From the NCBI GenBank assembly GCA_951406725.2, contig OX597823.1, forward strand, positions 91,698,001 through 91,762,000: 64,000 bases of DNA. Direction: 5' to 3'. Position numbers and translations under genes: made by a program. Positions within the stretch are counted from its first letter, which is position 1. Every line of letters starts with the position of its first letter. Below the pieces are notes generated by a model. It did no database searches, was not told where the DNA came from, and saw only the letters and a list, made by a program, of their open reading frames with translations. Of the stretch, positions 5,622 through 38,194 are shown piece by piece. This DNA is from Octopus vulgaris (Eukaryota).

Positions 5622-6231
5622 ATATATTTTAACAAATTATCTCTCCTTCTAGCACTTTTCCACAAATATCAGCCAGCCATGTATTGCCAATTTTCGCCAT
5701 CATTTTATGAAATAGAGGCGATCTTATTCTTACCTAGGTCTAGAGATTTTTACTAATCGATAGTGTTTCTCATATATCTCTAACAATTGTCTTTTATTCC
5801 ACTTCTTTTATACTTTCACTTTTACTCTCTCAGAGGTAGAAAATACGGTTTTGTTTTCTTCTTGTTTTCTCCATTATTTTAACTAAATTGCTAGGTAATC
5901 CAGATTAGATTTCTTATAATAGATATTTAAGTCTTGTTACATATCAAATTTCAGAGAAATTCTGTTATCTTTATTTATTGTCAATTTTTTTCTGTGTCGG
6001 ATTTCGACTTTTATATTTTAAACACTATCAATATTTTCCGTATTTCTTTTCCTCTTGCCTTGCTTTTTTTAATTCGATTTCTCCAGGAATATTCTTCCAG
6101 CTTTGTCCTTTACTTGTTTCTATCATTGGACTGTGGTCTTGCTGAGGGACTGCTTTGAGAGATTTAGTCAAATAATACACCACTACATTATTTACATTTG
6201 ATGGATATTAGTCCTCATCTTCTTTGTTGTT

Positions 6232-6277
6232 AACACAGCATTTCGGCTGATGTACTCTCCAGCCTTCATCAGATGTC
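6232..6277 (-). ncRNA. Minimal type I hammerhead ribozyme motif (family H2), helix III mutated
   Basis: GACAT-CTGATGA-A-GGCTG-gagagtacat-CAGCC-GAAA-TGCT-GTGTT; helices I and II pair, while TGCT departs from the CGTT seen at 7099. Confidence 0.7.
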
Positions 6278-6329
6278 TTGGGAAAATTTCAAACCTGAGT
6301 TCTCGTTCCTGAGATATTTTAGGATGTTG

Positions 6330-6427
<98 letters not shown>

Positions 6428-6446
6428 ATTATTATTATTGTGTGAG

Positions 6447-6995
6447 AGAGCAGTTCATGCCATCAAAGTGACACTGGGGTAAAATATACGAAGCCCAATA
6501 TACCCATCATGACTACCCGTCTGATAAAGGTACATCAGGCACATGCATCACAACCATATGTGCGCGACATGGTGATCTCATATCAAGATAAACAGCACAT
6601 GACCTTGCAGGTGGGGCCCAGTTAGAATTTTCTTCAGGTTGAGTAGCCGATCCCGCTCAAACGGTCCCTGAATAAGGGTTGTTTAAGGATGTTGAAAGAA
6701 CCACCCATGTTTCCAGAGGTGAACTATTCAAACCCCAAAGAATCCCTCTCAACACATGGCTATGATGCTCCCCACTACTTCTGCTCGTGATCAGAGATGC
6801 ACATATCGTCAGCCAATAAGGGACATGCTCAACTGGTTAAGGTCAAACAACTGACAAGCAAATCTGTGGTATTGAGCAGAATATTTGCTGTAGCCCATCT
6901 TTTATACCAAGACAAAACAATGTACATGATAACACTTCCAATCAGTTAAGATCAGAAGCCATGAGAGCCACTGCCTGGTACTGCATCAGGGCATT
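6447..6995. mobile_element. ~550 bp non-coding insertion within a (TTA)n tract, unclassified
   Basis: Balanced-composition block flanked on both sides by pure (TTA)n; no ORF; single copy in this window. Confidence 0.45.
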
Positions 6996-7000
6996 TATTA

Positions 7001-7081
<81 letters not shown>

Positions 7082-7721
7082 CGGTTATTGCCCAGAATCG
7101 TTGTGTTAACAACTAACAAGATGAGGACAAATATCTGTCAAATGTAAATAATGTAAATAATGTACAAAATTATTCATCTCTCAAATAGAGAATTGTATAA
7201 ATCAACCCTGGTACTTACATTTTTTTAATTAAGTCTGGTATTTACCAAGTCGATCTCTTTTGCCAAACAGCAAAGTCACAAGGGATGTAAAGAGACTAAC
7301 AAAAGATGTGAAGCAGTGGTGGGAGACAAAGGCAAACACGAAAACAAACACACACAACCACGCGCCCACACGCACGCACACACAGCCACGCGCACACACA
7401 CATTTGTATTTGATATGCTTCCAAACGTTTCTGCCTACCAAATTCACTCACAGGTCTGGGGTTATAGTAAAAAAACTCTTGGCCAAGGTGCCACACAGTG
7501 AGACTGAACCGGAAACCATGAGATTGGGAAGCAAAACGTCTTACCACACGCTCATGTCTGCCTAGAAATATTATTTTACACTGGGCAATAATGTGATTTT
7601 AAAGCTCAGTATCTTATTCCATTCATTCAAAATATTTTAAATATAAATCCGATGGCGTTATAATAGTTCTTCCGCTAATATTTTACTTATTCGCGTGTGT
7701 TATACTCTCTCTTATTTATTC

Positions 7722-17588: not shown

Positions 17589-17893
17589 ATGACAGATGTA
17601 AATAGACATACCATAAAACATTTTATATTTCTAATTGGAAAGCTGAATTCGACTTTTTCTTATCTCTTTCAGGGGTCGTTAAGTACGAATCAAGTCCAGC
17701 ACTAATATCGATGTGATCGTTCGGCAACGTCACCGCCGAAATTGCTGTCAGACTAGGTATTCTCATCGTCTTGACTTTGGATTGGTCTTGCTCCTGGTAG
17801 ATTTTATGTAGGTAGCAGCTTGCTACCTGTACGCTAAGATAGCATTCTGTTCTCAACAAACCATCAAATGCTTAAAACCCTTCTAGTGGGCGA

Positions 17894-17960
<67 letters not shown>

Positions 17961-17969
17961 ACTATTATT

Positions 17970-18092
17970 ATTATTATTCAGGTCACTGCCTGGAATCGAA
18001 CTCGGAATCTTGGGTTTAGTAGTCCACGCTCTTAACCACTACGCCCTATGCCCACGGGCATATGGTGTAGTGGTTAAGACCTGAATAATAAT
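17970..18092 (-). mobile_element. tRNA-like head of family H2 with fold-back duplication
   Basis: Minus strand GGGCATAGGGCGTAGTGGTTAAGAGCGTGGACTACTAA...GAGTTCGATTCC; inverted copy at 18056-18092. Confidence 0.75.
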
Positions 18093-18210
18093 ATATTGAC
18101 TGAGTAAAATAATTTAATATTGGGGCAATATTTCGACGGAAAAAGTGGGTTTACCCAACGCATGAGACTTGAACTCACTCCTCTATATATTCGCGATAAC
18201 CTTGTTACTA

Positions 18211-18357
18211 CATTATTTACATTACTTACATTGACGGATATTTGTCCTCATCTTGTTTGTTGTTAAAACAACATTTAGGCTGATATACCCTCCAGCCTTC
18301 ATCAGGTGTCTTGGGGAAATTTCGAACCTGGGTTCTCATTCCTAAGGTATTTTTGGA

Positions 18358-18426
<69 letters not shown>

Positions 18427-18478
18427 GTTTTTTCTTTCTTTCTTCAAATTTTCTTCCGTTTCTCGCCGAGTGTTTTTC

Positions 18479-18561
<83 letters not shown>

Positions 18562-18668
18562 TAATTGCTTGGAATCAAACTCGGAATCTTGGAGTTAGTT
18601 GCCCGCGGTCTTAACCACTACACCATATGCCCGAGGGCACAATTCCTCATCTCTTAAATATAGAACTG
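18211..18668 (-). mobile_element. Family H2 element: tRNA-like head + (TAA)n + hammerhead motif (18265-18310) + tail
   Basis: A box TGGTGTAGTGG and B box GAGTTTGATTCC at 18559-18632; GACAC-CTGATGA-A-GGCTG..CAGCC-TAAA-TGTT; imperfect 13-bp flanking duplication at 18198-18210 and 18669-18681. Confidence 0.75.
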
Positions 18669-19386
18669 AACTCTGCTACTATTCCACCAACGTACCCACT
18701 TGCTTCATCCTGTTCCATTTAAGAAGCGTTGTTTTTTTAACCGATAAGTTACGGGGATGTAACCGATAAGTTACGGGGATGTAAACACACCAATATCGAT
18801 TGTCAAGCAATGGTGGGGGTACAAACATGTGTGTTTTCTGCGATTATTTGAGAAGCAATGGCGAGTGATAATTCTGTAAATGATAATACTATTTTATAAG
18901 CTTAAGGCAATGACTAAAGAAAATATTCTAATATTGGCACTAATGAAATTATTTTTTAAATCTAAAGGGAAGCCGCAAATGGATACGTTCGTGCACTCGT
19001 AGCACACTTATCGCGAATATATGAAGTTGCGGTTTCGAGTCCTACGCGTACAGAAAACCCATTTTTCTGTCGTGGACTCATATGACTAAATATTACACTG
19101 GTTTCTTGAGTCAATACACGCTGATCGCTTATAAGATTTAAGCTTACAAAATATTTACAGAATTATCACTCGTCATTGAGTCTCAAATCACCGCAGAAAA
19201 CGCATATATATATAGTGTTAATGTTATTTTTATATCTGGTTGTAATAAAAACAATTTTGCATTAGGTTGAGGTATTTGTCTATAATTTTGTATAGACTCC
19301 GACGATGACTCAGCTGGGCGAAACTTGGATGTCCTGTCAACAGTATTCTCGTTTAAGAATAATGTGTGTAAGTGTATATATATGTA

Positions 19387-31756: not shown

Positions 31757-33058
31757 TTTATGTGTGTGGGTGTGTTTGTATATTTAGTTTTGCGTGTCTG
31801 ACGTAGAGGGATGGGTTGGTTTTAGTGTTATCTTTTACATTTTAGACATTATTATATTAATTATATCTTTTTTTTTTTACATTGGCACATGGCCATCTAT
31901 TTTGGTGAAATAAACTGACGAATATATTATGCCGCTGTGTTTAAATTTATGAACCTTGGAATAATGAAAAGCTGAGTCAGTTTTAGTCCCATTTGAAGTT
32001 ATAACTTGAACGGAAAAGGACAATACTATATAACCTTCATTAAGTGCACATAGAACAGAGCGAATCGAAACAATATTGTTTTTATATATTCTGAATATGC
32101 TCTGTAATATTAGAACCTAAATATGTCCTGTGATATTAGAATCTGAATATCTGATTGTTGTTGTTTTTCATCATCGGAGAACATCTCTCTTTAATCGTTG
32201 CGTTTTCATAGCATATGTGATCTGTCAATGTTAGGATTGTTCGGGACACCGCTCTGTTTCGACCTTAATTGGTGTCTCCTCAGTCAAACCTGCCCTCCGA
32301 GACTAATGAAGCTGACAAGGGAATCAACTCCTGTTTATAGGAATAAGCGAGCAACTTATTTACTGATGTTTGCCAAACTGATAAAAATCAAGGTATCTAC
32401 ACAGAACAACGAGAATCTATATAATAATCTATCAATTTACTTCTAATATGCTTTGGCAGATTCTGATGTTGCTATCGAATCGCTGTTGTTGTTTCCTCAT
32501 CGGAGAAGATTTGTTCCCACATCACAAGTGATTCAGTAGTATAAGGAGTATTGGTGGGAGAGAACGCACATCACCTAAATGTAGGTGTTCTCCGACGACG
32601 AAAACGAACATAGATCAGTAATTCATTTTTCAAATCTGTCAAAATCTTTTAAGAGTGAATAGATACGTTATTGACACCAAGCATATGGACCGCTGTCATA
32701 CCAATTCTGCTAATTCACCTCGAACTTTCTGTCATAATTTTCTCTGTAGCGTAACATCACCAAGCATCTGCCAGTACACTAGCCTTAATTATTATTGTTA
32801 TAGTATTTTAAGTGGAATACGAAGTAGATAATGCTGAAATTAATAGCATGTAAATAATGGGCTAAAAGCCTTTTGGACAGAAAAAAGGGGAAGGCTGCGC
32901 GTGTGACTCGAACTCACATCTTCTGGGAACATGACAAACGTTCTGGCAAAGCAATCGTTCTAATTTCTTTATTCATTTTAGAAGCTTTGATTTGGTTTAC
33001 CCAATAAGAATTTAGAAACTTCAAAATATTGCATGTTCTAAACTTTACGGTGTCACCA

Positions 33059-37548: not shown

Positions 37549-37620
37549 CAAAATGTGTCCGCGTGTGTATCGTTGGCGATTCCCTCCGTCTTCTTTTCCT
37601 TGGATCTTTCCTTTTCCTAT

Positions 37621-37655
37621 GTTTCTGACGAAGTGCTCCGCTCGAAACGTTAAAT
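37621..37655 (+). ncRNA. Minimal hammerhead motif with intact core, in a (TA)n-flanked repeat (about 37555-37755)
   Basis: GTTT-CTGACGA-A-GTGC-TCC-GCTC-GAAAC-GTT-AAAT; palindromic AACGTT helix III; one mismatch in helix II. Confidence 0.7.
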
Positions 37656-38194
37656 CCTCCTTTCTTTCCTTTCCTGAGCGTCCAATAACACTATACTTGT
37701 TCCGCGTCCTCGCGTTGTTGTATTTTCTTTTTGTGTTGTTATGTTTGGATTAACTAATTATATACATAAAACATATACAAAATCCAAGCACAAGGATTTA
37801 GTCGGTTTGAGGCCATAGTATTTTAGAAGACACTTGCAAAAAATGCCACAAACGTCTCACCATGCAGTCACGTCTGCGCCTATTTATATACATTCTGAGT
37901 ATCATACGATTATTTTGCTTTAATCCATTTAATAATTCTTTTTAATGCCGTTATTGTGAGATCTACAACGTAGATAAACAAGCATGAAGCACTGGAGAGA
38001 AAAGGAAACAAAAAAAGGGTAAGATTTAATTCAGTTAAATCTGTGAGACTGAGTTTTTAGATGCAATTTTAGAAAATTTAGTTCCGCTTTAAGCCTCATA
38101 CTCAAAACCTCAAAAATAAAATTTCGAAATATTTCCGAGATAATTTCAATCATCATCGTTGGCTTCGTTCCATGAAGCTATAAATGATGATTTA

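Follow-up and report, generated by a model that had tools for sequence, protein, structure and literature searches.

Evidence that a SINE-like octopus repeat is the tRNA-headed pseudo-LTR of a Penelope-type retrotransposon

Within a 64,000-nucleotide stretch of Octopus vulgaris DNA (contig OX597823.1 of assembly GCA_951406725.2, positions 91,698,001 to 91,762,000 of the forward strand; hereafter the window, in whose numbering positions are given), the segment at 18198-18681 is almost certainly a decayed, ORF-less insertion of the pseudo-LTR (pLTR) of an autonomous, protein-coding Penelope-type retrotransposon. The feature is a fragment of a Penelope pLTR and not a new class of SINE; what is unusual about it is the tRNA-derived head in the pLTR, whereas inverted pairs with a one-sided tail are the known Penelope signature. 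Taken as a whole, the proposal developed here, namely a pLTR insertion whose head is likely an internal RNA polymerase III (Pol III) promoter with an RNA start about 6 nt before the head, is regarded as reasonably likely.

The copy lies on the minus strand and is worn and shortened. It is bracketed by an imperfect 13-bp target-site duplication (upstream copy at 18669-18681 and downstream copy at 18198-18210, minus strand; 10 of 13 positions identical), which confirms the duplication noticed in an earlier, sequence-only reading, and when the flanks of the insertion are joined, they align to the other copy of the repeat that it interrupts, apart from some 11 additional bases. Read along the minus strand, the insertion opens with a 28-bp remnant of an inverted second arm (18641-18668, plus strand), a Penelope-type 'tail' end that continues into the ORF in ORF-bearing copies, followed by a short palindrome, GCCC-NN-GGGC (18629-18638), which stands at the inferred RNA 5' end (position -6) and forms the centre of head-to-head insertions. 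The head itself (18556-18632, best match tRNA-Arg(ACG)) lies 29 nt past the ORF stop codon in ORF-bearing copies and has its A box at 18625-18615 and its B box, with one C>T change, at 18582-18572. Beyond it runs a (TAA)n spacer in two parts (18481-18555 and 18361-18425) divided by a foreign 55-bp piece (18426-18480; matched by eye, without a scored alignment), which is likely the 3' end of another TAA-tailed retroelement and of which a longer version is present in the spacer of locus L058. The insertion closes with the first ~40 codons of the Penelope ORF (18211-18339, with its ATG at 18339) and stops at the more upstream of two 3' end sites; inside this ORF start sits a minimal type I hammerhead motif (18265-18310) with an extra base after A9, a palindromic helix III, and a predicted cut after 18270. 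The tRNA-like head with its A and B boxes, the (TAA)n run, and the hammerhead-shaped motif previously read on this strand are thus all present. The host sequence had been called an older tRNA-SINE; it is a genuine repeat (18121-18740, minus) with a 67% inverted twin 200 bp away (18953-19072, plus), but no tRNA is detected there by ARAGORN. The repeat with its twin contains a T5 run and a word resembling a B box, and no further copies of it were seen among the fetched loci.

Two more copies of the family lie in the window. One (17890-18090, minus) retains a head-to-head centre with the left head partly deleted, a head, and (TAA)n, its hammerhead segment having been lost. The other (6184-7200) is one inverted insertion with a left arm at 6184-6328 (minus), a right arm with tail at about 7093-7200 (plus), and a deleted centre, so that positions 6232 and 7099, counted earlier as separate copies, belong to opposite arms of a single insertion. 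A 550-bp TAA-tailed retroelement (6440-6990) sits in the TAA run of this copy; it has 29 long matches among the fetched loci, often within the (TAA)n run of the Penelope family.

The assignment to a coding element rests on the order of the family unit, which runs ORF, stop, 23-nt linker, palindrome, head, (TAA)n, and next ORF start carrying the hammerhead. An endonuclease-like frame stands directly upstream of the head in several loci, and when the genome was searched with a natural 186-aa frame of this kind (150 scored matches of 4,980 candidates), inspection by eye showed the stop codon to be followed by the 23-nt linker, then the palindrome, and then all or part of the head in 28 of the 30 fetched endonuclease-selected loci, the two without a head after the stop being L084 and L089. 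The exact linker-head junction occurs 440 times genome-wide. Longer stretches yield a natural 569-aa frame with RT motifs and a putative endonuclease, for which Pfam returned RVT_1 at E=2.7e-6 (27.7 bits, below the 29.6-bit cut-off) and no GIY-YIG match, PF01541 being found in 3 homologues among 120 listed; a C-terminal motif is putatively that of a GIY-YIG endonuclease. The same frame has 2,735 homologues among 7,990 scored, those of 780-850 aa showing 39-55% identity. At the other end, the frame begins at the ATG ahead of the hammerhead, which accordingly encodes the N-terminus of the ORF: in locus L134 the hammerhead segment and tail read in frame into the ORF, and the homologue P0003 (847 aa) has a peptide matching the hammerhead-encoded one at its N-terminus. 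Partial tandems of ORF end, head, hammerhead, and ORF start occur in 4 of 30 ORF-start-selected loci (L413, L419, L421, and L436), and with a distant coral protein as query, all 30 loci examined belonged to the octopus family described here (~79-89% relative to the reference copy). None of the loci examined showed a full-length ORF in intact form.

Head and hammerhead are linked in most copies, as the sequence-only reading had supposed: the hammerhead segment lies downstream in 27 of 30 head-anchored loci, and a head is present in 67 of 87 independent insertions anchored on the core (from contig 1, the 90 fetched first less three duplicates), lying on the same strand and upstream in 52 of the 67. 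The autonomous Penelope-like element sharing hammerhead and tail, for which that reading had suggested a search, is present in the same genome, and the segment is the pLTR of an autonomous Penelope-type element, the very outcome that it had named as fatal to its own stand-alone SINE/retrozyme. This layout matches the pLTR as defined for Penelope in the available text of PMC2377424, and a ribozyme within the ORF start is likewise described, in the part of the source at hand, for an element of Anolis (PMC11167929). The element works like a Penelope/Poseidon element. The clade label itself is put forward by analogy, from the hammerhead-in-ORF layout resembling that of the Anolis element PAc and from the absence of the cysteine linker found in other families of the same genome, which we presume to be a Penelope/Poseidon trait.

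The anatomy of the insertions points to the same machinery. An inverted arm lies upstream in 56 of the 87 insertions; among the 68 that are two-armed, 64 have the extra tail on a single arm, 4 lack it altogether, and none has it on both arms, and a duplication-like match accompanies 56 of the 68, a figure obtained without a null and inflated by AT-rich flanks. Perfect head-to-head centres number 364 loci genome-wide. Copies end within coding sequence at two fixed 3' sites, (TAA)n being internal. The two arms of one insertion share a subfamily site in 46 of 49 pairs (12 rare variants shared versus ~4 expected), which indicates that they came from one source, either because the cDNA folded back or because synthesis was primed at both ends of the target. 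Inverted truncated copies with a one-sided tail of 30-40 bp are given as a Penelope signature in the accessible part of PMC8557442; opposite-strand hammerhead pairs 100-700 bp apart are noted for Schistosoma (PMC4209133, in part), and internal priming at two sites and on both strands for the Anolis element (PMC11167929, in part). Mobilisation by Penelope-like machinery, as first surmised, is hence supported by the one-sided tails, the inverted arms, and the target duplications. A MITE or DNA-transposon origin of the inverted ends was considered and rejected: the arms are unequal, with their one-sided tail, and run into the RT ORF. Separately, four of 30 loci (L409, L412, L416, and L432) break at one ORF position, 234 nt past the tail, where the sequence continues with the head start in some and with the hammerhead cut site in others, which hints at a favoured 3' end of the RNA or a favoured point for jumps; locus L326 (G000:C2:16237500-16240000) holds a 150-bp tandem array of the family's ORF end, linker, and head start.

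Could the short copies nevertheless form a non-autonomous SINE/retrozyme lineage of their own, with solo copies as Pol III templates, a hammerhead that processes the transcripts, and a Penelope enzyme borrowed for mobility? Short copies do exceed ORF-bearing ones (ORF sequence in 9 of 87 insertions), solo arms are slightly less diverged (4.7% versus 6.1%, in a sampling that favoured intact solo arms), and the inverted bases seen before position -6 would fit palindromic solo copies as sources. Against such a lineage, the entire block belongs to the autonomous element, head included, and the main non-CpG subfamily sites have the same frequencies among solo units (74) as among ORF-linked ones (38; P 0.82-1.0). 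No separate SINE lineage was seen in these units; differences between them were confined to CpG sites, deletions, and one further site, again in a sampling that favoured intact solo arms. With the head part of the coding element and the subfamily variants shared by solo and ORF-linked copies, the independent element first envisaged is improbable, while palindromic solo copies may also have served as sources. Of the traits of a tRNA-derived SINE, the A/B-box head is present; a distinct lineage and a simple-repeat or poly(A) 3' end are absent.

The hammerhead bears on the same question. It is, as judged from its motif, a predicted self-cutting element within the ORF's first codons. The exact intact core occurs 3,509 times genome-wide (reversed-pattern control, 0) and a 24-letter stretch across the cut site 4,043 times, and both counts are floors, since the mean divergence of 168 arms from the majority sequence is 5.0%. 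The core features of the family (the extra base after A9, G10.1-C11.1, and the palindromic helix III) are listed for minimal Penelope-like hammerheads (PMC4209133, available portion), which are described as cutting slowly, as dimers (PMC6765202, likewise in part). The description of a complete minimal hammerhead thus holds for the family but not for the copy at the locus, where the core is broken by G12>T at 18277 and by C>T at the palindromic C (18273). A further G>T in stem I of this copy creates TTTT at 18268-18265; a subfamily with TTTT after the cut was entertained and dismissed, the change being treated as a sporadic mutation (61 versus 4,043 arms genome-wide). Helices I and II are predicted to fold, with a weak z of -1.5 to -1.8. 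The Rfam scan that had been suggested gave no hammerhead or tRNA match on two near-intact copies, and neither was present in the best 150 of 315 matches for the window. If cleavage defined the ends of the element, as an independently processed retrozyme would have it, arms should begin at the cut; none of 297 does, and cleavage-defined ends were rejected. Two isolated junctions (L416 and L432) do begin at the predicted cut, which they join to ORF position 234, and these speak for such processing, although they may reflect rare cleavage or microhomology. Also unfavourable to it are the rarity of direct tandems (~5 of 87 with a second same-strand hammerhead segment, by eye) and the 4 matches to a cut-site junction pattern versus 3 in the control, a pattern that missed head-start junctions by one letter. 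Elsewhere in the window, a second, unrelated minimal hammerhead-shaped motif (37619-37656, plus) belongs to a repeat of another family, for which 40 of 2,113 candidates were scored, at 90-94%, and whose hammerhead core is found in 16 of 20 loci, and two more CTGANGA...GAAA motifs with plausible stems are seen at 32283 and 20321 (both minus).

The head is derived from a tRNA, although not from the one first proposed. Among 13 isoacceptor types compared, host tRNA-Arg(ACG) scores highest (70, 52 of 75 positions), followed by Arg(TCG) and Arg(TCT); tRNA-Ser(GCU), to which the head had been likened, scores 50.5 and needs a 9-nt gap, and the maximum in a shuffle null of a similar head-tRNA comparison was 43. 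A 'Ser(ACT)' identity returned by relaxed ARAGORN in 10 of 30 cases was given no weight, a stricter relaxed setting having made more than 100 calls on unrelated loci. Genes of the tRNA-Arg(ACG) and tRNA-Ser(GCU) types are clustered in the host genome at G000:C2:211.89-211.91 Mb and C3:70.85-70.90 Mb, with ~20-25 genes per cluster.

That the head is the Pol III promoter of the element is, on sequence grounds, somewhat probable in view of a sharp 5' wall. In a set of 91 head starts, the end falls at -8 to +4 in 78 (most commonly at -7 and -1), and 13 continue into the linker (7 by script, 6 by eye), the single end between -9 and -19 being one of the 6 by-eye linker cases; 5' ends past +4 were left out by the anchor, and the T at -7 is common to linker and inverted copy. 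Among 100 listed of 1,784 genome-wide matches, the linker is upstream in 32 and absent in 68 (by eye, palindromes counting twice). Position -6 lies 13 nt before the A box. A spacing of 13 nt between start and A box is usual for tRNA-type promoters, so that ends clustered here point to an RNA start at this place. Unmatched A's, matching neither side, stand just before -6 at three template jumps (L409, L412, and L106), as would be expected of run-off at a real RNA end. The earlier notion of Pol III-driven transcription thus remains plausible for the head in view of the 5' wall, but what the head would drive is the pLTR of a coding element and not a separate SINE.

An ordinary Pol II Penelope offers the most serious competing account of these ends, unlikely as we consider it. 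The tRNA/SINE head would then be a passenger captured in the 3' UTR, transcription would start at -6 from a TATA-like word or further upstream, and the short copies would be 5'-truncated or folded-back cDNAs stopped at the palindrome. Such a word exists: TATAAG overlaps the stop codon 28 nt before -6, a position that fits Pol II as well as Pol III, and the relatives L347 and L333 show TATA-like words before the hammerhead. The internal promoter of Drosophila Penelope has been likened to LINE promoters (PMC2377424, in the available text), and the ORF must in any case be translated. Moreover, the wall coincides with the palindrome that forms the centres at the 364 loci, and 3-4 inverted bases precede it at many junctions; the same pattern could therefore come about on a longer RNA, through a pause of the reverse transcriptase or through fold-back, and the partial tandems imply that some templates ran through the head from upstream. 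What a passenger head explains less readily is a wall lying 13 nt before an A box that has a matching B box, and the fact that arms stop at the head start even when joined to the middle of the ORF or to a unique flank (L231). Raw RNA-seq reads of a related species (three unstranded runs, ~6% of reads, and one contig set) cover the element at ~0.1% of reads and show the same junctions, with loose ends at the head start and at both 3' ends; no pile of molecule ends was seen in these data, which as unstranded cDNA cannot separate the element's own transcription from read-through.

A further point on which the two accounts differ is the distribution of T4 runs, which act as Pol III terminators. 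Were the whole RNA transcribed by Pol III, its sense strand would be expected to lack T runs, and T4 is indeed absent from the whole unit. The body majority (2,470 nt, 76 distinct copies, 22% T, with a frame shift after codon 618 and thin 5' coverage) contains none versus 3.1 expected from a synonymous shuffle (P=0.017), the per-copy ratio of observed to expected runs is 0.16, and the majority of the 5' part, rechecked in 30 more loci, is also free of T4. Penelope-like control sets came from a GIY-YIG search of the same genome and from metagenome contigs, and four LINE sets were added. The LINE sets give ratios of 2.07, 1.71, 0.82, and 0.65; other Penelope-like ORFs of the same genome give 0.99-3.56, apart from one small family with 0 versus 2.1 expected, and another family's 781-codon ORF (21% T) has 9 T4 runs. 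For 80 related loci from metagenome contigs, the median ratio is 1.39, a zero occurring in 1 of the 71 with an expectation of at least 2; that relative, L332, with its T4-free ORF, lacks a tRNA head and carries T runs in the pLTR, and all five of the relatives' pLTRs inspected are rich in T runs. T4 or longer stands within 40 nt of 23 of 30 host tRNA genes. G4 runs are low in the family body too (ratio 0.32), and the P value for T4 is modest. The depletion of T4, read from sequence composition, is a hint of Pol III transcription and not proof. The boldest extension, that a tRNA-Arg head was captured as promoter, that all terminators were purged from the 2.7-kb unit, and that Pol III makes the full messenger end to end with thousands of SINE-like short by-products, is offered tentatively and remains on the doubtful side. 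As an aside, L311, L312, and L313 (e.g., G000:C16:20835000-20840500) hold a Penelope-like family that is younger, has a linker rich in cysteine and many 781-codon frames without interruption, and served here as a control.

In the mechanism favoured here, Pol III would start the RNA about 6 nt before the tRNA-Arg-derived head, and the RT/endonuclease of the element would use both strands of the target for priming, at two internal positions shortly beyond the hammerhead. Priming in the upstream pLTR would lead to run-off at the RNA 5' end after ~300-400 nt and so yield SINE-like short copies. Head-to-head pairs would arise because the terminal palindrome allows the two ends of the cDNA to fold back or to anneal with each other. 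For the hammerhead, cleavage is predicted in the dimer only, and definition of the ends would not require it.

Several consequences follow if these views are broadly right. Small-RNA promoters in retroelements have been described for non-coding passengers (SINEs, Cassandra, Helenus); here one appears to sit in the terminal repeat of a coding element, and if the head drives the ORF, Pol III would be making the messenger of a transposase-like protein, whose translation without a cap would then call for an explanation. The sharp 5' wall and the two fixed 3' ends provide a natural map of template ends for the poorly understood transposition of Penelope. Lastly, octopus repeats numbering in the thousands, which annotation software would probably label as SINEs or tRNA pseudogenes, are ends of Penelope elements.

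In the article listings and passages searched, no description of a pLTR with a tRNA head came to light. The available portions of PMC8967140 and PMC4758252 hold nothing on the octopus element, and that of the O. vulgaris repeat paper (PMC13282606), whose supplements may contain a family consensus, does not mention ribozymes. The nearest relatives in layout are PAc of Anolis and other EN+ Penelope-like elements, which, as far as excerpts of the sources describe them (PMC11167929, PMC8557442, PMC4209133), likewise have a single ORF for an RT with a C-terminal endonuclease (putative in the octopus family), a pLTR composed of 3' UTR and ORF start, a minimal hammerhead overlapping the ORF start, an inverted 5'-truncated arm, a one-sided tail of 30-40 bp, two 3' end sites, and a ribozyme cut that does not mark the ends. 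The octopus family differs in that its 3' UTR consists of an A/B-box head and (TAA)n instead of a T-rich stretch, its short copies end sharply at the head start, and its body is free of T4; a regex for an A/B-box pair matched none of the 80 related loci, many of which have too little flank.

The combination of a tRNA-derived SINE with a hammerhead is already known from schistosomes, where, in the accessible parts of PMC6765202 and PMC2770079, Sm-alpha and Sj-alpha are tRNA-derived, apparently transcribed by Pol III, and carry a hammerhead downstream of the promoter. Those repeats are non-coding, SINE-like, and cut by the ribozyme from multimeric transcripts (same sources), whereas the octopus block is the pLTR of a coding element, has a minimal ribozyme, and occurs in inverted rather than tandem copies. 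Animal non-LTR retrozymes, too, are short non-coding hammerhead repeats related to Penelope pLTRs, according to the available part of a preprint that mentions neither tRNA nor octopus there (bioRxiv 10.64898/2026.07.22.740005). They are defined by tandem monomers and circular RNA, unlike the octopus family with its mostly inverted pairs and tRNA head, for which no class of circle junction was found. A further study of animal retrozymes (PMC7229834) reportedly also treats non-LTR hammerhead repeats. Among LTR elements, the TRIMp3 group (Cassandra, Helenus, Ajax) likewise bears a small-RNA-derived Pol III promoter inside the terminal repeat, tRNA-like in Helenus; as portrayed in the part of PMC10886601 available, however, these are non-autonomous LTR elements with PBS/PPT and duplications of 4-5 bp, whereas the octopus family is protein-coding and carries its tRNA-derived head in a pseudo-LTR.
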